From: Candidatus Heimdallarchaeota archaeon
GTDB taxonomy: Archaea; Asgardarchaeota; Heimdallarchaeia; Hodarchaeales; Hodarchaeaceae
Direction of reading: 5' to 3'
DNA length: 64,000 bases
Assembly: GCA_019057635.1 (NCBI GenBank)
Contig: DXJL01000113.1
Coordinates: 1-64,000 of the forward strand
The notes below the pieces were generated by a model, which searched no databases, had not been told where the DNA came from, and saw nothing but the letters and a program-made list of their open reading frames with translations. Below, in pieces: positions 9,089 to 18,067 of this stretch (positions are counted from its first letter, which is position 1; every line of letters begins with the position of its first letter). The position numbers were made by a program, and so were the translations under genes.

Positions 9089-9883
9089 TTATTTTTTCAT
9101 AACTTTTTTGTCCGAGACAAGATTTACTCTTTCAGTTAACGTTATGAATAGTCGATGTAACTTTGTTAGATCTAAATTCTTATTTATTCTGGAATATATA
9201 CGAATAGAAGGATCTTCTGACGAATCGATAGAAATACGTACAACAGAATCACGAATGGCGTATATTTGCTTAAGAAGTGGTTTATCTTTGAGGAAGAAGT
9301 CGCCCATACGTTCAGATGTTGCTTTCATTAAAAAGAATTGATCTAATAATTCAGAATCAAGTATAACGTCTTTTAACTGAAAAAGTAAGTCTTGATGTTT
9401 TTTAATTTGTCCTTCTTCATGATTGGGGATAATTTGTATTTTTGTTGGTAGTTTCCCTTTTTTTGCATTTCCTTCTAACGCAATGTAGTCATTTGCTCCT
9501 GAAAACCATGAGATTATCACAGATAACATTAAATGACGCTCTTCCAACGCAAACACGACACGAAAATCTTTGAATGGAATTTTAGATGATTTTTTATATT
9601 TAGGAAATAATAGGCCACCATTGGAAGTTATTTGATCAGTTACTAAATCATCAAATTCATTAGAAAATATTTCAAGAAGAGCATCCTTTGATACATTGAT
9701 AATTTTATGATTCTTCCTCCTACCAGACCACAACAGGTAAAAAGTAAAAAATAGAACTAATCCTGGTCCTAAAAATATTACCATATAATCTAGAAGCCCG
9801 TATTGCTCAGATTGAAGAAAGAATTGTCCAATGAAAAGAAATTTTTCCATAAAAGGGTCGTATATTGCCATTTTGAATCTCAA
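9089..9883 (-). CDS. Membrane-anchored protein, CCDC47/DUF1682 (PAT complex)-like
   Basis: TM followed by GRRKNHKI..EIFSNEF and LEERHLMLSVIISWFSGANDYI, matching recalled CCDC47 motifs [14 protein letters not shown] and [22 protein letters not shown]. Confidence 0.62.
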   Translation of the reverse strand: MRFKMAIYDPFMEKFLFIGQFFLQSEQYGLLDYMVIFLGPGLVLFFTFYLLWSGRRKNHKIINVSKDALLEIFSNEFDDLVTDQITSNGGLLFPKYKKSSKIPFKDFRVVFALEERHLMLSVIISWFSGANDYIALEGNAKKGKLPTKIQIIPNHEEGQIKKHQDLLFQLKDVILDSELLDQFFLMKATSERMGDFFLKDKPLLKQIYAIRDSVVRISIDSSEDPSIRIYSRINKNLDLTKLHRLFITLTERVNLVSDKKVMKK

Positions 9884-9964: not shown

Positions 9965-10537
9965 TCAAGATATATCTAGGTAGCTGGCTATTTCTCTATA
10001 TTGAAAAATATCACTTTGAGAATTTCCAACGACTTGAAAAAACTTATATTTGGCGATTCCATCTTCACCAACGTCATTAGGATCAACTACCAGTGCTACT
10101 GAAAGAGGTTGAACTAATTGAAAAGAGTATACATGAGTAGTAATATCAGTTTGTGATAAAAATAATCCATATCCAGGATGTGAATGCCACCAACCCACAC
10201 AGAATTCTGGACCCGATAATTGATCAAAAACTTGAAAATCCTCATCAGAAAAAGATACTGAATATTCATCTCCCTGGGTTACATAAATTCCCTTTGATAT
10301 CATTATTTCTTTTGAGCGAACTTCAATCCCGCTGAGCAAGCCAATAGCCTCTTTTGGTTTGGCTTCGATAGAATAATTGGTAATTTCTATAATTGTTTGC
10401 TGTGATATGGTAACAGAAATTGTCTCTAAACTCAATCGAGACATCTCGTTGTTGGCCTGATCTGAATGTAGGCCGTCAATTGATTGGTCTGTTTCGTCCT
10501 CATTATCAGAATTTTCAGGGGGATCTTTATTTGTCAT
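9965..10537 (-). CDS. JAB1/MPN+ (JAMM) metalloisopeptidase, Rpn11/AMSH-like
   Basis: EAIGLL glutamate plus GWWHSHPGYGLFLSQTD JAMM motif and ALVVDP. Confidence 0.95.
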   Translation of the reverse strand: MTNKDPPENSDNEDETDQSIDGLHSDQANNEMSRLSLETISVTISQQTIIEITNYSIEAKPKEAIGLLSGIEVRSKEIMISKGIYVTQGDEYSVSFSDEDFQVFDQLSGPEFCVGWWHSHPGYGLFLSQTDITTHVYSFQLVQPLSVALVVDPNDVGEDGIAKYKFFQVVGNSQSDIFQYREIASYLDIS

Positions 10538-10632: not shown

Positions 10633-11184
10633 CTAACTCGTTCCATGCTCTTTTGTCCATTTAACAGCTTTCTCCCAGAAATCATTGAAATTGGACTGCA
10701 TGGATTTTCCAGCCTCTGGATTGAATGGATCGCCAGGATCAACGAGGTATTCTGGAAATTCAGAATCTCCTGAACTCTGATAGACATCAAGCATCATTTC
10801 GATATGCTCAAATACACTAGGTAGAGTTATAGTCTTTTTCCATCCACCAAGTTCACCTATATTGTTCCAATTGATTAAACTAAGACAAACATTAGAACCC
10901 CATTTCCAACGAGTTTCACCTATAGCAATATTGGGATGCCAAATTGGTGTAATAAAATTAACAATTGGAGGTTTGAATGGATATTCAGGTGGTAAATCAA
11001 CGGTGATTTTCCATTCCCCGTTTTCATACGGAGTGCCTTCTTTCCCTTTTATTGTAGCAGAGTAGTGATGAAGATCATTATCCACTATTAGCCACTTTAT
11101 GGTAGCACTTTTTGGGGGATAAATCTTTAGCATTCGCTTAAATTCTTCCCTTAATCGTCTGGAATGTAGATCAGACATAAGCAA
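10633..11184 (-). CDS. Ubiquitin-conjugating enzyme E2
   Basis: RRLREEF, GTPYENG, PPEYPFKPP, WHPNI and catalytic VCLSLI. Confidence 0.96.
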   Translation of the reverse strand: MLMSDLHSRRLREEFKRMLKIYPPKSATIKWLIVDNDLHHYSATIKGKEGTPYENGEWKITVDLPPEYPFKPPIVNFITPIWHPNIAIGETRWKWGSNVCLSLINWNNIGELGGWKKTITLPSVFEHIEMMLDVYQSSGDSEFPEYLVDPGDPFNPEAGKSMQSNFNDFWEKAVKWTKEHGTS

Positions 11185-11499: not shown

Positions 11500-12288
11500 A
11501 TGACTGATATCGAGACAGAAGTTGCCCAGTGTAATGGATGTGGTGCTCCTCTATTAGGAAACCCTTCTTCTCTTCGTCCCGTTCATTGTGAATATTGTGA
11601 TTTGACAAACTATCTCAGGAAATCACAGGGAATAGCTCCTGATGAAAGTTCAGTAAACGAGGAAGTGGAATCTGAACATTATTATCTTTTATATCAAGAA
11701 TCCCAGAAAATACTGGAAAATTTTCCTGGGGAATTAGCGGGAGAGGAAGTAGGAAAAATTCGTATTAAAATGCAAGTTGGACAGTACGCATTTCCATTAT
11801 TGATAGTGCTTGATGATTTACCAGAAAAACCCTTTATCGATGGTCCAAATGTTCTTCGAGAAGTTATCAACTGTGAGATTAATGACTTAAATACTATGAA
11901 AGATTGGATACCTGGAACAAGTTCGGTATTAGATGTCTTAGAAGAAATCTACCAGATATCTGAAAATCAACTTCCTCAAAAAATGGAAGGCCCTTCAACG
12001 ACAAGTGAGTCAAAAAGTACGATTAAAGAAAAAAATCCCCTCATACGACAGATCTTGGAAAGTTATGATGCCACGCCAACAAGAAAAGAAATTAAAATTA
12101 ACTTTTATGCACAAACAGGAGAAGTTATTCCATTCACAATCAAAAGAAAAAAGAACTATCCGATAGGTCTCGAAAGTGAAGTTCTTTCGAGGTATCCACT
12201 TATCCGCGGACCTTTAGAGGATTATGCGAAAGGTCGTATTGATCTTATTACTGTGTTGGCCGAAATTGAACGCTTATTCTATGTGTAG
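11500..12288 (+). CDS. Zinc-ribbon plus UEV/RWD-like (catalytically dead UBC fold) protein
   Basis: N-terminal CNGC..CEYC; FPLLIVLDDLPEKPFI and LNTMKDWIPGTSSVLDVLEEI resemble UEV/UBC C-terminal elements; no HPN motif. Confidence 0.55.
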   Translation: MTDIETEVAQCNGCGAPLLGNPSSLRPVHCEYCDLTNYLRKSQGIAPDESSVNEEVESEHYYLLYQESQKILENFPGELAGEEVGKIRIKMQVGQYAFPLLIVLDDLPEKPFIDGPNVLREVINCEINDLNTMKDWIPGTSSVLDVLEEIYQISENQLPQKMEGPSTTSESKSTIKEKNPLIRQILESYDATPTRKEIKINFYAQTGEVIPFTIKRKKNYPIGLESEVLSRYPLIRGPLEDYAKGRIDLITVLAEIERLFYV

Positions 12289-12310: not shown

Positions 12311-12640
12311 ATGAATAATCGAAAAAAAGATGTTGTCTGGGACTCAAACGTTAATTCCCAAGGAACAACATCGGATGGTATTGAACGTATGATTAAAGTC
12401 CGTTTTAAGGACCCACAACTTCCACCAGATCAAAACATCCGTGAAAAATATATTAACATAAATGGTACAGTTTTTCAAGCAATTACAGCAGCACGTGACG
12501 CATTTAATATTCCTGAAGTTGTACCAATCGCACTACTGTTTAAAGGTCGAAGAATGAATCCATCAAACAACCTTGTTTCGTACAATATTGAAGATAACGC
12601 CCTTCTAATGATAGTACCTGATCAGATAAAAGGGGGGTAA
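12311..12640 (+). CDS. Ubiquitin-like modifier (beta-grasp) with exposed C-terminal GG
   Basis: LLFKGRRM..NLVSYNIEDNALLMIV..KGG-stop; lies directly upstream of the E1. Confidence 0.92.
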   Translation: MNNRKKDVVWDSNVNSQGTTSDGIERMIKVRFKDPQLPPDQNIREKYININGTVFQAITAARDAFNIPEVVPIALLFKGRRMNPSNNLVSYNIEDNALLMIVPDQIKGG

Positions 12641-12675: not shown

Positions 12676-13914
12676 ATGAACTCACATCTCCCTTATTCAA
12701 AATTTGATCGTCAAGAGCGTCTTTCGATTTGGGACCAGAGTCTCATTGAAAAAAGTTGTGTGTTAATAATAGGAATAGGAGGAACTGGGGGAGAAGTGGC
12801 CAAGAATTTATCTTTACTTGGGGTGGGAAAATTGATTTTGGTAGATATGGATACAATCGAATTTTCAAACTTAAACCGCCAACTACTATTTTCAAAAGCA
12901 GATATTGGTAAGAATAAAGCAAAGATAGCTAAGAAAGTAATTAAAAAAAGGTATAATTCCACTTTGAAAATTGAGGCGTATAGTGATCCCATTCAATCAC
13001 TGCCTTACAGAATTTTTGAGGAAGCTGACATAATTGCTGGGTGTGTTGATAACTTTCTCGCACGACAATTTATTAATGAAATTGTTATAGAATTATGTTT
13101 ACCGTTAATCGATTCTGCAACCGATGGTTATTTTGGCCAGGTACAAAGTGTAAATCCAAGGAAAAACGCTTGTCTGGCTTGCGATTTTCCACCTCCTCCA
13201 GAAGAGACTCGCCTTCTATCTGCACCCTGTACTCTTGTTGGAACTCCAAGAATCAAAGAACATTGTGCATGGAAGGCCCTTTATGAATTTCATACTATGA
13301 ATGATCGGGAACCTGATGAAAATTCCCCCGATGATGTTCAGGAGATTACAAACCTAGCAAATAAATTCGCTACCGATCACCAATTCCCACTCTTTGATAC
13401 CAAAGAGATTATTCAACTTGTATTATACCACGTACCTAGTCTAATTACTGTTAATGCGGTAACTAGTGGAATTCAATCGCAAGAAATCATAAAAACTCTA
13501 TTTATCAACAAAATGAAGCTTTTTAAAAAAAAGGATCAGAAGGAATTCAAATCTCTTATCCGTGCACAACGATTCAGAATTCCTGATTTAACTATTTATT
13601 CTGCACTAACAGGAAATATTAGTTCTTTTAATCTTATCAATGATCCAGATTGTTTGGTGTGTGGTAATTCTTCAATTTACCACCAAACTCCAGTAACAAT
13701 AAATGTAAACCCAAAGTTGAAATGCAAAACGATTTTTACAATATTAAAGCGTAGATTCAAGAAAAATTATATAGGTTTTAGAGGAAATTTCATTATTCCA
13801 GCGGAAGCATTAATAGAAAATATTCTTCAAGACGGGGATAGAATAACCGTTAGTTCACTAGATGATGATAAAGAAAAAAGAATAAGAATTAAATTTAAAA
13901 AGAAGAAGGGTTAA
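12676..13914 (+). CDS. Ubiquitin-like activating enzyme E1 (UBA3/UBA2-like)
   Basis: GIGGTG nucleotide loop, DMDTIEFSNLNRQLLF, CVDNFLAR, CLAC, catalytic PCTLVGTPRIKEHC, CLVC zinc site. Confidence 0.95.
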   Translation: MNSHLPYSKFDRQERLSIWDQSLIEKSCVLIIGIGGTGGEVAKNLSLLGVGKLILVDMDTIEFSNLNRQLLFSKADIGKNKAKIAKKVIKKRYNSTLKIEAYSDPIQSLPYRIFEEADIIAGCVDNFLARQFINEIVIELCLPLIDSATDGYFGQVQSVNPRKNACLACDFPPPPEETRLLSAPCTLVGTPRIKEHCAWKALYEFHTMNDREPDENSPDDVQEITNLANKFATDHQFPLFDTKEIIQLVLYHVPSLITVNAVTSGIQSQEIIKTLFINKMKLFKKKDQKEFKSLIRAQRFRIPDLTIYSALTGNISSFNLINDPDCLVCGNSSIYHQTPVTINVNPKLKCKTIFTILKRRFKKNYIGFRGNFIIPAEALIENILQDGDRITVSSLDDDKEKRIRIKFKKKKG

Positions 13915-14243
13915 TCTTCATCAGTGGAAGGGTAAAAAATACGTACCTTTCTTCTAAGCTTTGGTTTTATCGGTTGAATGGATGGATTAAGATAAGGGTC
14001 TTTCAGTCCAAAATCTTGAATTTTTTCTTTCGTAAATTTGCTGTAAATTTGACTAGATATTCGATCACGAGAAGTTTGACGGGATTGGGGTTTTTTGGCA
14101 CTAAATTTTCTTGGTGAAGGTACAGTTAATCGAATGGTCGTTCGTTTTCCACATTTAGGGCAATACCACGCACCTGTGACAGGTTGTTCATTTGAACGAG
14201 GAACATATCCACAAAATTGACATTTAAATTCAGATTCTCTCAT
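13911..14243 (-). CDS. Zinc-ribbon protein with basic tail
   Basis: CQFC..CPKC; convergent with the E1, overlapping it by 4 nt. Confidence 0.6.
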   Translation of the reverse strand: MRESEFKCQFCGYVPRSNEQPVTGAWYCPKCGKRTTIRLTVPSPRKFSAKKPQSRQTSRDRISSQIYSKFTKEKIQDFGLKDPYLNPSIQPIKPKLRRKVRIFYPSTDED

Positions 14244-14393: not shown

Positions 14394-16154
14394 TTGTGCA
14401 TCATGTTAAGACGAAAGAAGAAGAAATGGCTAGAAGCAGTTTCTACGGCACAATCACCAATACGGATAGAGGATTTTTCTTCTTCTACTGATAAAATGAA
14501 TGTTGTCGCCTTTTTATATGAAAAAATCCAACAACAACAATTGGATGGGCTTTTAGACTATAATCATATCTATTTCATTCCGAAATCACATATCTACAAA
14601 AAAATTCAACAATTTCTAGACGCACAAGGAATGGTTGATATATGTGAACTAATAGACCTAATGAATTTACCAGGTAATTTGCTTGAGCCTATTATCCATG
14701 ATTACGTGCAAGAAATAGACGGTTTTTTTGATTTAATCAAACGAAAATTCTTTACACGATCAGGAGCTATCTCATTCATTACTAAACTTCTTGGTAACAC
14801 TCCCACGCATGATCTTGAATATTTACTAAATCAGATATACTGGACAGATCACCAATTAGAAGCTGTATTAGACTTAATGGCGCAAAAAGATCTATTCAGG
14901 GGTTATATTGACCCTATCAAACAACGTTTATACAACTTCAAATCCCTTCGTTTTTCCCTTACTACTCCGAATGAAGGATCGATGAGAGCCCTATCCCGAT
15001 TCATAAATGCATCATTCCAAATTTCTTCAGAAGTTTCTTTAATAGACATTTCTCGCCTTACAACGCTACCACAGGATGATCCATTGAAATTTCTTGAACT
15101 CTTTGAGAATCGTTTGAGTTATATTAGTTCTAAGGATAGAGATTATATATACTCTACAATCGATATTGTTTCGCAAATTATATGGGATATTTATGTGTAT
15201 GAAGAGATACCTTTGGATTTCTGGGTAGCCAGGTTTGATCTTGGGTTTGAAGCCTTATCTGATCTATTATTAGTATTAAATGAAAGTTTTCGTGGTAGCT
15301 TATCAAAAAAGTTTCTAAAAGGTATTTCTTTGATTCATTGGTTCGAACAAGGAATTGATATTGAAGGATTAGCTACAAAAATAAATATAGACGTCTTGAG
15401 ATTGTTAAAAGAGATAACAACTATAGCCCTTCGTTTAGAACTTCGTTTGGTGGCAGGTGATTCAATAAATCCGTTTCTAGTGAAAGGAATCAGAGATTTA
15501 GAGATATTTTGTCAAATTGATACTTCCTCATATTCCAATCCTTCAGTATACTTTGAGTGCCAAAATTGTAGGAGGGTAATGTGCTCAAACTGCAGAAAAA
15601 TTGATAGCACCCATGAATGTCCGTTTTGTGGAAATATTTCTGCGTTTATTATCGATCTACCACGGAATTGTCCTACTTGCCAATTGACCTATGCTTATTC
15701 ATATAATCTTGAAACAACTGAGGAGTGCTATTTCTGTGAACAAGGTCCATTGAAATCTGGATGGTTTACTTCAGAGCAAAAACCCTTGAGTCTTACCGCT
15801 ACTGAAAATCAATTTGTTAATTTCATCCAGAATCATCATTCTCCAATAATTCCTTTACAACAAATTATTGATTTTGTTAGTCAATCATCAGAAGAAGTCA
15901 TAAAAATACTAGAAAAACTCATTACTCACAAAATCATTGCGGGAACAATTAGCATTCAAAAATTGCAATTGAAAATTAAAAAAGCTTATGTTTCGTTTGA
16001 GTGTGTGGTTTGTAAATGGGTTAAAACCGATAAAAAGAAGTTTATCTGTAATTTGTGTAACGGAGAAGTCTGTGAAAATTGTTATCAAGGGATGGAGTCG
16101 GTTGGAATGGTTGATTGTCCAGAATGTGGATCATCTCTTGAGTTAGTAGAATAA
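14394..16154 (+). CDS. Multi winged-helix plus multi zinc-finger (RING-like) protein, putative E3 ligase
   Basis: Repeated wHTH/PCI-like units (GMVDICELIDLMNL, GYIDPIKQRLY, GTISIQ); Cys clusters CQID..CQNC..CSNC..CPFC, CPTC..CYFC and C-terminal CVVC..CNLC..CENC..CPEC. Confidence 0.7.
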   Translation: MCIMLRRKKKKWLEAVSTAQSPIRIEDFSSSTDKMNVVAFLYEKIQQQQLDGLLDYNHIYFIPKSHIYKKIQQFLDAQGMVDICELIDLMNLPGNLLEPIIHDYVQEIDGFFDLIKRKFFTRSGAISFITKLLGNTPTHDLEYLLNQIYWTDHQLEAVLDLMAQKDLFRGYIDPIKQRLYNFKSLRFSLTTPNEGSMRALSRFINASFQISSEVSLIDISRLTTLPQDDPLKFLELFENRLSYISSKDRDYIYSTIDIVSQIIWDIYVYEEIPLDFWVARFDLGFEALSDLLLVLNESFRGSLSKKFLKGISLIHWFEQGIDIEGLATKINIDVLRLLKEITTIALRLELRLVAGDSINPFLVKGIRDLEIFCQIDTSSYSNPSVYFECQNCRRVMCSNCRKIDSTHECPFCGNISAFIIDLPRNCPTCQLTYAYSYNLETTEECYFCEQGPLKSGWFTSEQKPLSLTATENQFVNFIQNHHSPIIPLQQIIDFVSQSSEEVIKILEKLITHKIIAGTISIQKLQLKIKKAYVSFECVVCKWVKTDKKKFICNLCNGEVCENCYQGMESVGMVDCPECGSSLELVE

Positions 16155-16162
16155 ATTAGTTA

Positions 16163-17056
16163 TTATGACGATTTTTCGGCTTTTATTTTTGCGAGTTTTG
16201 ATGAATATTTATCGGCTATTTCTTTATATCGTTTTTCAGAGATTTTACCTCCTAAAAACATCTCATCAGCCTGTTCGAGCATTAATTCGAATTTTTTAAT
16301 TTTTTCTGAAACCTCATCAAATTTATTTCGCTCTTCTGCGAGTTCCTGTTGAGTTTCAATAATTTGCTTTTCAATCTCATACGTAAGTAAGGTTTCGTAC
16401 TCTTCAGGCACTTTAAATCCACCAATATCTAATCCTACTAGTTCTAGGCCCCATCGAGAGCTTTCAGGACCTAATTCAGATCTTGTTTGAATTTCTAAGC
16501 TTCTTCTGTCTTTTAATAACTCAGGTACAGTGTAACGAGTCATAACATGTTTAACAGCTGCTATCACCGTCTGTTTCACCCAATTTTTAAGCTCATTTCC
16601 ACTATAATACTGTTTATGGGAGACTACGTTCATGATAAAATTCCTTGGATTCACAATCCGCATCCGAGAAATTCCCCAACATCCCACCATAACATTGTCT
16701 GAGGTGTAAATACCAGGCGTTCCCCATTTAATGATAAATTCACGTTTTGTAACCCATATAATTTCACTTCCAGGATGCTTCGCTGTTTTTTCCAATTGAT
16801 AAATTCCACTCCCAGCAACTCCAACTAGCACCCCTGACTGTAACAACACGGCATTTTCTGGTTCTTTTACAATAAAGCCGTCAATTTTTCTAAAGTTATC
16901 ATTTTCTTCTGCTTTCACTCTATGAATTAACGATTCACCAAGTGAATCATCAAATTTTGAGCTTAGAATCGCTTTTCCCTTGAATTTCTTGGTACCTATG
17001 TGAATTGTATCCCCTATTTTACGGAATAGTCCACCAAATTTGTCTGTTTCCGCCAT
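16163..17056 (-). CDS. SPFH/band-7 domain protein with C-terminal coiled coil
   Basis: FIVKEPENAVLLQSG, KWGT, RIVNPRNF, RWGLELVGLDIGGFKVPEE; no obvious TM segment. Confidence 0.85.
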   Translation of the reverse strand: MAETDKFGGLFRKIGDTIHIGTKKFKGKAILSSKFDDSLGESLIHRVKAEENDNFRKIDGFIVKEPENAVLLQSGVLVGVAGSGIYQLEKTAKHPGSEIIWVTKREFIIKWGTPGIYTSDNVMVGCWGISRMRIVNPRNFIMNVVSHKQYYSGNELKNWVKQTVIAAVKHVMTRYTVPELLKDRRSLEIQTRSELGPESSRWGLELVGLDIGGFKVPEEYETLLTYEIEKQIIETQQELAEERNKFDEVSEKIKKFELMLEQADEMFLGGKISEKRYKEIADKYSSKLAKIKAEKSS

Positions 17057-17065
17057 CGCTTCTAC

Positions 17066-18067
17066 CTACCAATCTTCATCTCCATATAACCCTGGAAAGT
17101 AATACTGATCTCCTGAATCAAGTGATGACACTTTTCGAGCAACTTTTTGATTGACAAGACTATCTAAGACCCTCATTACTCGTTGTTGATCCCATTTAGT
17201 ATGAATCATAACTTCCTCAAATGTTACATAGCCTTTATCTATTGCTAGATTAAATATGTTCCGGGCATCTTTTCCAAGAGCTACTGGTGTAAACTCGACA
17301 ATTTTTATGCCAGATTGTTTGGAAACTCCTTCAATTAACGATTGTTTAGTTAGTTGTTTACAGGCCTTTTCTAAATCTTTCAATGAAAACTTGATATCTG
17401 GAACTTGATTTTTCAGAGAAGTATACAAGTTTGCCATTGAAATATAACCACCTGAACTTGCTCTAAGAGTTTTTCCTTGTTCAAGGATTAAATCAGCAAG
17501 ATTGTCAACAAATTTCCCTTTCCCAAATATTTTTGGCTTTTTTGTTGCATCTAACGCGGTTATTGTTAGTGTACGCCCTTCTTTTCGGAGTAACTCTCTC
17601 TCTAATTGCTGAATGCGGGAATCATATTTCTTCTGTAAATTCTTAATTCCCTCGGTTGATACTGGAGCTCCGTTAGCCAACTTATTTTGAACTTGAACTA
17701 CCTCTTCTAATCGCGTTATCTGTTCACGAAGATCTAACAACTCACTGCGGAGATCTAATTCTTTATTCCCAAATTCAAGATCATCAATTAATAGTTTAGA
17801 CCGTTCTGTTATTTGGTCACAAAGAATAGTTGCCAGTAGCTGCGCAACACGGATTTCCCCACTTTCCTTTAAATTGGCCATTTTATTATCAGAGTAGAGT
17901 ATTATATCAGGCACAGTTTCGCTTAAATACCTAATCTCTTCAAATTGTGTATAAAATTTAATTACTAGATCTGATATGTGTTTAGCTTTCATTGCAGCAG
18001 TATTACTTAATTGATTTAGCGCATTACTTGCAGTTTGAAATTTTTCTCTCAAAATAAGGGTCACCAC
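17066..18067 (-). CDS. ESCRT-II Vps22/Vps36 (EAP30)-like protein with N-terminal coiled coil
   Basis: GGYISMANLY, FSLKDLEKACKQL, GYVTFEEV..WDQQRVMRVLDSLVNQ, QYYFPGL tandem winged helices characteristic of the EAP30 family. Confidence 0.88.
   Translation of the reverse strand: MVTLILREKFQTASNALNQLSNTAAMKAKHISDLVIKFYTQFEEIRYLSETVPDIILYSDNKMANLKESGEIRVAQLLATILCDQITERSKLLIDDLEFGNKELDLRSELLDLREQITRLEEVVQVQNKLANGAPVSTEGIKNLQKKYDSRIQQLERELLRKEGRTLTITALDATKKPKIFGKGKFVDNLADLILEQGKTLRASSGGYISMANLYTSLKNQVPDIKFSLKDLEKACKQLTKQSLIEGVSKQSGIKIVEFTPVALGKDARNIFNLAIDKGYVTFEEVMIHTKWDQQRVMRVLDSLVNQKVARKVSSLDSGDQYYFPGLYGDEDW

Follow-up and report, generated by a model that had tools for sequence, protein, structure and literature searches.

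A Hodarchaeales protein that joins a UFL1-like winged-helix array to two RING-like fingers beside ubiquitin-type genes

UFL1 is odd among ubiquitin-like ligases in being a scaffold that has no RING, HECT or RBR domain, and is not known to contain a zinc finger. The window analysed here, a stretch of 64,000 nucleotides from Candidatus Heimdallarchaeota archaeon (contig DXJL01000113.1), comes from the Hodarchaeales, an archaeal order often placed nearest to eukaryotes. It contains a gene that raises the question of whether a UFL1-like scaffold with zinc fingers of its own serves the ubiquitin-type genes beside it. Upstream lie genes for a JAB protein (9965-10537, minus strand; Pfam JAB, 8.4e-10), an E2 (10633-11184, minus; UQ_con, 2.3e-24), a zinc-ribbon double pseudo-E2 protein (11500-12288, plus), a ubiquitin-like protein (Ubl) ending in GG (12311-12640, plus; Rad60-SLD, 1.6e-5) and an E1 (12676-13914, plus; ThiF, 7.7e-50). 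Downstream lie an SPFH/Band 7 gene (16163-17056, minus; Band_7, 1.6e-16) and an ESCRT-II Vps22-like (EAP30) gene (17066-18067, minus; EAP30, 1.4e-10). The product of the gene between them is probably a ligase or adaptor for the adjoining ubiquitin-type tagging genes.

The gene and the order of its modules

The longest open reading frame covers 14394..16154 on the plus strand, with a TTG start at 14394, 586 codons for amino acids and a stop codon at 16152-16154. Because the homologues all begin at an ATG three codons downstream of this TTG, translation probably begins at 14403 and yields 583 amino acids. The whole gene, encoding a UFL1-like winged-helix and RING-like-finger protein, was therefore placed at 14403..16154 (plus) from the reading frame, the homologue starts, 62 relatives and the structure model. 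The reading frame proposed in the initial annotation is real, and the string quoted from it, LDGLLDYNHIYFIPKSH...LLEPII, is present in the translation. The 62 database relatives were found at E<=0.001. The protein is conserved in Hodarchaeales and its family is confined to that one order; a full-length copy is present in each of the 20 genomes sampled from the source family. A search of the ESM Atlas gave no usable match. A promoter and terminator scan gave fewer sites than shuffled sequences, its consensus being bacterial and uninformative for an archaeon.

The chain opens with an N-terminal helix and continues with winged helices, six in tandem. Next come a C-x2-D/C6 finger and a C4 zinc ribbon; a PCI-type winged helix and, last of all, a C4C4 finger complete it. 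The AlphaFold2 model of the whole protein has a mean pLDDT of 88.0 and a pTM of 0.77. In it, helix-helix-helix-hairpin units repeat over residues 28 to 363. Past this array lie zinc modules rich in beta structure; a single further winged helix (466-525) precedes a beta-beta-alpha finger (546-582). The homologue alignment and the model agree with the order after the array that had been read from the letters, namely C/D finger, zinc ribbon, winged helix and C4C4 finger.

The winged-helix array and its relation to UFL1

The N-terminal helix (residues 1-20; 14403..14462, plus) was assigned from conservation and from the model, where it spans residues 2-14; its Trp9 and Pro19 are nearly invariant. 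UFL1 starts at the same N-terminal position, query residue 21 aligning with UFL1 residue 19 in the profile alignment. The six tandem winged-helix units (residues 21-363; 14463..15491, plus) were delimited using Pfam, a PDB profile search, Foldseek, VIA and hhalign. UFL1 (PF09743; PDB 8ohd, 8qfc, 8c0d, 8b9x) is built alike, its N-terminal helix leading into winged helices in tandem. A further likeness noted is that the window protein carries a PCI/DDRGK1-type winged helix in the same chain.

The initial annotation had likened the N-terminal winged helix to that of UFL1 and had named generic PCI repeats as the alternative. The likeness is borne out, as the profile aligns query residues 31-103 with the very UFL1 stretch that had been named there. 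When the PDB was searched with the family profile, human UFL1 supplied the top four matches (E 1.7e-6 to 1.1e-5), and PCI proteins were absent among the matches to the N-terminal array region. Foldseek with the full model placed UFL1 chain 8ohd_A first, at E 2.8e-10 over 371 columns, and ranks 1-5 were all UFL1 (8ohd_A, 8qfc_B, 9gy4_E and 8b9x_A/B; E 2.8e-10 to 8.6e-8). The next match after the UFL1 chains, SelB, was six orders of magnitude weaker (E 2.9e-4). VIA returned long multi-domain alignments to UFL1 only, covering 130-283 residues at Z 9.7-10.0. An hhalign comparison with an Asgard protein scoring 75 bits against PF09743, above the cut-off, gave 94% probability, residues 18-177 aligning with 271-432. 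The array is thus specifically UFL1-like: it shares distant homology with that of UFL1 and is not a generic PCI repeat.

The E3_UFM1_ligase profile (PF09743), suggested as a check, gave a divided result. Of 37 family members, 17 match it at E<=0.01, the best at 3e-6, but the window protein itself scores 19.1 bits (E 0.0011), under the Pfam gathering cut-off of 23.2. In a six-frame search of the source genome the window protein scored 11.6 bits and no PF09743 match was better, which was counted in favour of a ligase. The array alone does not imply ligase function, because PF09743-type winged-helix proteins of another Heimdall family adjoin KaiC, Roadblock, FIST and Ras-type GTPase genes and not ubiquitin genes.

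Beyond the array the two proteins differ. The UFL1 structures matched in Foldseek stop within the array, short of the zinc modules; the window protein adds two RING-like fingers and a ribbon, invariant in its family. The long C-terminal part of UFL1 is missing (583 compared with 794 amino acids), and the window gene, unlike that of UFL1, adjoins ubiquitin-type E1, E2 and Ubl genes. The source genome, 91.6% complete, was searched for the DDRGK1, UFC1 and UFM1 families: PF09756 and PF08694 each gave 0 matches, and PF03671 gave just two, at chance level (E 0.38 and 0.43) and short of the cut-off.

Zinc modules and the C-terminal winged helix

Finger 1 (residues 364-415; 15492..15647, plus), which is RING/ZZ/p44-like, was defined by its invariant ligands, its column identity and its register with finger 2. 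Its ligands, C370-x2-D373-x12-C386-x2-C389-x4-C394-x2-C397-x8-C406-x2-C409, are invariant in 37 aligned homologues, and distant members have C-x2-C in place of the C-x2-D found here. The C4 zinc ribbon (residues 416-450; 15648..15752, plus) was placed from invariant cysteines and from beta strands at 416-430 in the model; C423-x2-C426-x15-C442-x2-C445 is unchanged in the same 37 sequences. Within the protein, conservation is highest in finger 1 (column identity 0.85), which together with the ribbon (0.81) forms the most constrained stretch. Finger 2 (residues 527-583; 15981..16151, plus), a C4C4 RING-like module, was defined by its ligands, profile matches, Foldseek and secondary structure. 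It has the ligands C534-x2-C537-x11-C549-x2-C552-x4-C557-x2-C560-x11-C572-x2-C575, again invariant in the 37 homologues, and beta-beta-alpha secondary structure at pLDDT 87-92 in the model of the C-terminal half. This conserved cysteine pattern is far beyond chance. The fingers align in ligand register, Asp373 taking the place of ligand 2, and by their sequences they are homologous to each other.

Eight ligands with RING-type spacing are found in finger 2 and likewise in finger 1, where Asp takes the second ligand position and the loops are x12 and x8; we take the spacing of both to fit the RING consensus. By sequence, finger 2 is the more RING-like. Its profile matches are the MAT1 RING (E 0.0032), UHRF1 (0.0046), TRIM32 (0.012), BRE1 (0.029) and NOT4 (0.045), and the predominance of RING-domain proteins among its matches at E 0.003-0.05 speaks for a ligase. 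The finger 1 profile found nothing significant in the PDB, the best match being the TFIIH p44 finger at E 0.22, which counts against one. When residues 363-583 were folded alone, finger 1 and the ribbon fell below pLDDT 50, and fold matches were therefore not searchable for these two modules. Foldseek with the C-terminal half gave no RING fold match at E<=0.001, a further point against a ligase; the Bre1 RING appeared at E 0.047 (54 columns, rmsd 3.0) and the p300 ZZ domain at E 0.077. The VIA rows for the half model cover its residues 97-167 only, which is the winged helix.

Across the profile, Foldseek and Pfam searches the finger matches (RING, B-box, ZZ and C1) were all sub-threshold. In the Pfam searches of 23 members, none of the RING families reaches its cut-off and none matches the window protein's own sequence. 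RING-type matches were to zf-RING_5 (5 members), zf-UDP (5), zf-RING_4 (2) and zf-RING_2 (1), with best E values of 0.0029-0.0078. Non-RING matches were commoner, to C1_2 (13), Siva (11) and a B-box family (10), and weigh against the ligase reading.

In RINGs, the residues ahead of ligand 2 and after ligand 7 make contact with the E2. Val or Ile stands ahead of ligand 2 in 23 of 23 sequences for finger 1 and 22 of 23 for finger 2, and ligand 7 is followed by Pro in 22 and 19 of the 23, respectively; both patterns favour a ligase, as does the invariance of the HPN motif and catalytic Cys of the E2. In many active RINGs, Arg or Lys follows ligand 8. Both fingers have Gly there and no basic residue, which argues against a ligase, as does the column identity of finger 2, 0.55 compared with 73-78% identity for the E2 across the same genomes. 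The same finger ends five other proteins of the source genome, a WD40 protein included. Its presence on such varied proteins suggests that it is modular, as in RING E3s, and is a point for a ligase. Both fingers may adopt a cross-brace fold, to judge from the RING-type ligand spacing and the weak RING matches.

The PCI/DDRGK1-type winged helix (residues 464-526; 15792..15980, plus) was assigned from Pfam PCI, VIA and a profile match. Pfam PCI matches 24 of the 37 members, with a best value of 1e-6, and the window protein at E 0.047, under the cut-off. In VIA, residues 460-529 align with the winged helices of CSN and proteasome-lid PCI proteins at Z 9.6-11.7. DDRGK1 was matched by VIA at Z 8.3 (rmsd 1.5) and by profile at E 0.042; a DDRGK1-specific reading was rejected, since the CSN and proteasome-lid winged helices score equally well or better. 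PCI subunits carry a helical-repeat part ahead of the winged helix, and this part is absent in the window protein.

Neighbours, explanations and known systems

Among 22 related loci, 19 have the E1 gene upstream of the gene and three end at a contig edge before it; the SPFH and EAP30 genes lie downstream in 21 of the 22. The order of the E1, E2, Ubl-GG and JAB genes is fixed within one family, the source family. There the syntenic block runs to 16 genes, including those for eIF2-alpha, S27e and Nop10, and since this span includes translation genes, the synteny is partly plain conservation of order. In a sister family the homologue is found with the SPFH and ESCRT-II genes and the E2 orthologue lies on a different contig; at one of its loci (L047) EAP30, SPFH and the homologue are co-directional with gaps of 7 and 0 bases. 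The SPFH and Vps22-like genes are the only neighbours common to both families. The tie to the neighbouring Ubl that the initial annotation proposed is weakened by the sister family, which keeps only the SPFH/ESCRT-II part and has its E2 elsewhere. A gene on the opposite strand also separates the UFL1-like gene from the Ubl-E1 pair, which speaks against a ligase; that Pfam annotation names no other candidate E3 in the cluster speaks for one.

The chances are about even that the product serves a Hodarchaeales ubiquitin-like system as a multidomain ligase of E3 type or as a ligase scaffold. The winged-helix array would be a platform holding a partner or substrate, and the RING-like zinc modules would recruit the neighbouring, catalytically intact UBC-type E2 charged with the GG-ended Ubl. 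For this candidate ligase we infer E2 binding, ligase activity and a target. Action at a membrane would be its most likely setting, because its most persistent neighbours encode SPFH and ESCRT-II Vps22-like proteins.

The same neighbours fit a non-catalytic adaptor or receptor. Its array and zinc modules would have the Ubl, ubiquitylated cargo or the ESCRT-II/SPFH proteins as binding partners and would couple tagging to membrane remodelling, and no E2 would be activated. Such a role, which we consider possible and clearly less probable than a ligase, agrees with the SPFH and Vps22-like genes being the sole neighbours kept in both families, co-directional with the homologue in L047, and with the missing basic residue after ligand 8 in both fingers. 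The tandem winged helices of ESCRT-II and Vps25 are also among the Foldseek matches (E 0.02-0.03), and the Asgard UFL1-type proteins in the literature carry a fused Vps28 domain. However, the best sequence matches of finger 2 are mostly ligase RING domains and not ubiquitin-binding fingers, the finger recurs on WD40 and other proteins as a RING E3 module would, and the cluster is otherwise without an E3.

It is unlikely that the protein acts on nucleic acids, as a transcription-factor-type protein (TFIIH-, TFIIE- or RNA polymerase III subunit-like) or an RNA-binding one like SelB, with its ubiquitin neighbours coincidental. The best finger matches include those of MAT1 and TFIIH p44, the winged-helix arrays of SelB, TFIIIC and Pol III RPC62 appear in Foldseek (2.9e-4 to 0.09), and the 16-gene synteny takes in eIF2-alpha, S27e and Nop10. 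UFL1 is nevertheless ahead of these matches in Foldseek by at least six orders of magnitude, the sequence profile search matched the array to UFL1 alone, and the SPFH/ESCRT-II linkage is kept where the remaining order changes. Far less probable still is that the protein belongs to an SMC-type complex as an Nse1-like kite-plus-RING subunit. Nse1 of SMC5/6 shares with the last 120 residues of the window protein the order winged helix, then RING, and 7dg2_A is the top Foldseek match of the C-terminal half (E 3e-3, 150 columns), with 5hvq_C also present. This match is weak, its E value exceeding 0.001; among the 16 syntenic neighbours no gene is annotated as SMC or kleisin, and the N-terminal array matches UFL1 and not kite proteins.

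Asgard UFL1-type 'E3' genes are already published. We take IPR018611 to be the UFL1 entry. The available text of Hatano et al. 2022 (PMC9192718) catalogues an Asgard 'E3' of ubiquitin-ESCRT clusters through IPR018611, in the same kind of locus as here (Ub, E1, E2, JAB, ESCRT-II), and the record name of a 97%-identical homologue (L005) is that of a genome in its Fig. 1C legend. That text gives no domain anatomy of the E3, and "RING" occurs in its reference list only. A DDRGK-UFL1-Vps28 fusion architecture is described for Asgard archaea in the accessible part of Liu et al. 2020 (10.1101/2020.10.19.343400). An Asgard origin of UFL1 and DDRGK1 is stated in the accessible text of Picchianti et al. 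2023 (PMC10183829), whose readable supplementary spreadsheet contains no Asgard terms.

Asgard fusions of about 790 amino acids have a winged-helix array homologous to that of the window protein, and both lie within Asgard ubiquitin/ESCRT-related gene sets. The fusions differ in passing PF09743 (62-75 bits) and PF09756, in ending in a Vps28 domain and in giving no RING finger match. They are present in 62 of 68 genomes of another family of the phylum; the source family gives weak matches only, in 5 of 20 genomes. No description of a RING fusion of a UFL1-type scaffold was found in the text-searchable literature.

If the ligase reading is true, it supplies the E3 so far missing from a gene cluster described in several publications. 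A UFL1-like scaffold joined to RING-like fingers beside a ubiquitin-type E1, E2 and Ubl is a concrete, expressible test protein. It opens the questions of whether UFL1-type scaffolds were RING ligases at their origin and of what the Asgard ubiquitin system tags. A rather unlikely extension is that the Hodarchaeales protein is an early UFL1-type ligase, a scaffold with its own RING fingers and an ordinary ubiquitin-type E2, acting at a membrane alongside SPFH and ESCRT-II, a CCDC47-like protein being a possible further partner; the loss of the RINGs on the way to eukaryotic UFL1 would then postdate the recruitment of UFC1 and UFM1.

In a similar setting, beside Ub, E1, E2 and Rpn11/JAB genes, the ubiquitin operon of Caldiarchaeum subterraneum encodes a candidate E3 of RING type, the small RING finger protein srfp, which stimulates the E2 according to the available text of Hennell James et al. 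2017 (PMC5654768). Compared by description, srfp is small with a single RING, whereas the window protein, at 583 amino acids, has a UFL1-like scaffold and two fingers.

Gene, family range and the winged-helix array

The open reading frame reported in the initial annotation, 14394..16154 on the forward strand, is present in the window, and the peptide quoted from it was found exactly in the translation. The window is low in GC (about 35%), and the names of database relatives place it in Hodarchaeales, an order of the Heimdall group (Asgard archaea). All 37 aligned homologues begin at the Met three codons downstream of the ORF start; the start was therefore taken as 14403, and the 583-aa product is numbered from there. 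Among 5.8 billion proteins, a word-indexed search returned 62 relatives at E<=0.001, mostly 582-591 aa long; those with names are annotated as hypothetical or, in two cases, as 'DC1 domain-containing'. With HMMER, exhaustive searching of 1.84 billion cluster representatives found no more than 23 matches at E<=0.001, which marks the family as narrow. Among 301 sampled genomes of the phylum, the window's genome and all 20 others of its family carry the protein at full length; one of two sister-family genomes has a diverged copy, and no full-length protein was found elsewhere. Family members can be as little as 41-47% identical to one another, as compared to 73-78% for the neighbouring E2 and 75-87% for the ubiquitin-like protein (Ubl).

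An AlphaFold2 model built from the 37-sequence alignment is confident (mean pLDDT 88.0, pTM 0.77). It displays a helix (residues 2-14), six helix-helix-helix-hairpin units (28 to 363), a beta-rich zinc region (364 to 450), one further winged helix (466-525) and a beta-beta-alpha finger (546-582).

The array had been described as UFL1-like, and this resemblance proved specific to UFL1. In Pfam, E3_UFM1_ligase matches the window protein alone at E 0.0011 (19.1 bits, under the 23.2-bit cut-off); when all members were scanned, it matched 17 of 37 (best 3e-6) and PCI matched 24 of 37, the PCI match in the window protein lying in the C-terminal winged helix (residues 498-520). The top four PDB sequences for the family profile are all UFL1 (8b9x_A, 1.7e-6; 8c0d_A, 9.7e-6; 8ohd_A and 8qfc_B, 1.1e-5). 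The UFL1 matches cover residues 21-168, a region for which no PCI subunit appears among the 46 PDB sequences listed at E<=10. With the model as query, Foldseek ranks 1-5 are all UFL1 chains (2.8e-10 to 8.6e-8, up to 371 columns), followed by the SelB winged-helix array (2.9e-4), with PCI subunits of the CSN and proteasome lid at 0.02-0.07. VIA-align produced long alignments to UFL1 alone (232 residues, Z 10.0; 130 residues, Z 9.8, rmsd 4.4; 283 residues, Z 9.7), and its PCI rows are single domains of 60-68 residues matching the C-terminal winged helix. The family profile also aligns, at 94% probability, with an Asgard protein that exceeds the PF09743 cut-off at 75 bits. We take the array to be genuinely, though distantly, related to that of UFL1. 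The high rmsd of the long UFL1 alignments (8.8-12.4) indicates that the domain arrangement either differs from that of UFL1 or is flexible, and the register is ambiguous because the array is a repeat. DDRGK1 (Z 8.3, E 0.042) scores no better than PCI subunits against the C-terminal winged helix, which is therefore probably a generic PCI/DDRGK1-type unit.

Zinc modules and the RING question

Invariant ligands in the 37-homologue alignment define three zinc modules: finger 1 (C370-x2-D373-x12-C386-x2-C389-x4-C394-x2-C397-x8-C406-x2-C409), a C4 ribbon (C423, C426, C442, C445) and finger 2 (C534-x2-C537-x11-C549-x2-C552-x4-C557-x2-C560-x11-C572-x2-C575). In a profile-profile comparison the two fingers align ligand for ligand over 44 columns (probability 52.5%, E 1.4e-4), with Asp373 opposite ligand 2 of finger 2; the diverged relatives P0067, P0080 and P0083 have C-x2-C in place of the finger 1 C-x2-D. 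Together with the model, these patterns bear out the module order first proposed, namely a C/D-C4-type finger, a Zn ribbon, another winged helix and a terminal C4C4 finger. Conservation is highest in finger 1 and the ribbon (column identity 0.85 and 0.81), followed by the array (0.57-0.67), finger 2 (0.55) and the last winged helix (0.53). The observation of a UFL1-like array with RING-like fingers is confirmed, and this reading of the domains was right.

The evidence that the fingers are RINGs is suggestive only. The claim of two RING-like fingers held best for finger 2, whose best-scoring sequence hits are predominantly RING domains (MAT1 0.0032, UHRF1 0.0046, TRIM32 0.012, BRE1 0.029, NOT4 0.045); the MAT1 match recurs with the single sequence at 0.012. 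No Foldseek match of the C-terminal half reaches 0.001, those listed including Nse1, a winged helix plus RING (3e-3), the Bre1 RING (0.047), p300 ZZ (0.077) and a RING/U-box entry (0.087). Finger 1 alone matches nothing in the PDB significantly (best, the TFIIH p44 finger, 0.22), and its model confidence dropped once it was folded without the array. Pfam matches per member are sub-threshold and spread over mixed cross-brace families: C1_2 in 13 of 23, Siva in 11, a B-box family in 10, zf-UDP and zf-RING_5 in 5 each, and ZZ in 2. In both fingers Val/Ile precedes ligand 2 and Pro follows ligand 7, which are common E2-contact positions in RINGs. After ligand 8, where many active RINGs carry Arg or Lys, both have Gly.

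The finger is modular: in the window's genome, the finger 2 profile finds six more copies in five other reading frames. These include a 778-aa WD40 protein (L039:1486-3819, +, contig C58) and a 577-aa double-zinc-ribbon protein (L041:1291-3021, +, contig C72), both ending in the same finger, and a 367-aa protein with two winged-helix-plus-finger repeats (L040:1273-2373, +, contig C203). Together these proteins resemble a small, modular finger-protein family.

Ligase or adaptor

The gene is not part of a UFM1 system. In the window's genome (91.6% complete), DDRGK and UFC1 families have no match, Ufm1 matches are at chance level, and no PF09743 match is better than that of the gene itself. The neighbours are of ubiquitin type: a ThiF E1 (7.7e-50), a UQ_con E2 (2.3e-24; HPN and Cys invariant), a Rad60-SLD/ubiquitin-like protein ending in GG, and a JAB protease.

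Gene order was read in 22 related loci of named public genomes; twelve further loci, duplicates of the same genomes, were left out. The order is Arf GTPase, an unknown membrane-type protein, JAB, E2, zinc-ribbon protein, Ubl, E1, small zinc ribbon, the UFL1-like RING-finger gene, SPFH, EAP30/Vps22-like, acetyltransferase, Nop10, eIF2-alpha, S27e and a GINS-like gene. It is complete in 15 of the 22 loci and interrupted in the rest by contig ends alone; E1 lies upstream in 19, and SPFH and EAP30 lie downstream in 21. One counted locus, L005, shares 97-99% identity with the window and carries no weight of its own. With all 16 genes frozen in order, the synteny is less informative than it looks.

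More can be learned from the sister family. Its homologue (588 aa, 25% identical) follows EAP30 and SPFH on one strand, the genes being 7 and 0 bases apart (L047:2970-8130), and the orthologous E2 is on another contig (E 9.4e-86). The persistent partners are therefore SPFH and ESCRT-II, not the Ubl cascade. A ligase for the neighbouring Ubl, as originally predicted, is a reasonable inference, with roughly equal chances of being right or wrong; the main rival explanation is an adaptor role towards ESCRT-II and SPFH without catalysis.

Three further proteins of the locus were noted. A 110-aa C4 zinc-ribbon protein (13911-14243, -) lies between E1 and the UFL1-like RING-finger gene in 21 of 22 loci, its stop codon end overlapping the E1 stop by 4 bases. 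A 264-aa protein (9089-9883, -) has neither a Pfam match of its own nor a PDB sequence match; weak matches to PF07946 (CCDC47, PAT complex subunit; best E 3.4e-4) were seen in 9 of 15 orthologues. A 262-aa protein (11500-12288, +) has an N-terminal CxxC...CxxC motif and no Pfam match.

Related Asgard architectures and published record

PF09743 is common elsewhere in the phylum, exceeding the cut-off in 102 of 301 genomes, but with different architectures. Fusions of about 790 aa joining zinc-ribbon, DDRGK, UFL1, PCI and Vps28 domains occur in 62 of 68 genomes of one family, as at L042:2453-4822 (-; weak N-terminal zinc-ribbon match), L043:2180-4558 (+) and L044:1090-3450 (-). In eukaryotes DDRGK1 and UFL1 are separate, whereas here both are fused in one chain. 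Proteins of about 260 aa form a separate architecture.

Published accounts state an Asgard origin of UFL1/DDRGK1 (Picchianti et al. 2023, PMC10183829) and Ufm1 homologues in nine Asgard clades (Kostlbacher et al. 2026, PMC12962969). Liu et al. 2020 (10.1101/2020.10.19.343400) described Vps28/adaptin/E3-UFM1-ligase fusions in a main text without the word RING. Hatano et al. 2022 (PMC9192718) used IPR018611 to diagnose the Asgard E3 of ubiquitin-ESCRT clusters; RING occurs in one reference only of their text, and the Fig. 1C legend lists the genome whose name L005 bears. For the Caldiarchaeum operon, a small RING protein was shown to act as the E3 (Hennell James et al. 2017, PMC5654768). A text search of the literature found no description of the UFL1-plus-RING architecture. 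Asgard UFL1-type fusions and 'E3' genes of ubiquitin-ESCRT clusters are already in print.

The neighbours of the about 260-aa proteins were annotated in one locus of another Heimdall family (L052:8378-12816), where KaiC-like, Roadblock, FIST and Ras-type GTPase genes accompany the gene for a 252-aa winged-helix protein that is positive for PF09743. In the sister-family locus, an Arf-like GTPase and then a Roadblock/LC7 gene follow the homologue. Taken with the window's Arf genes, these arrangements hint that UFL1-type winged-helix proteins may be repeatedly associated with small-GTPase modules. Finally, the 915-aa relative P0080 has winged-helix repeats, two copies of the finger-1-plus-ribbon module and an N-terminal third that is hydrophobic as judged by eye. 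Similar 920-aa frames are found on G136:C27 and G238:C194, and these long relatives may be a membrane-anchored sister form.
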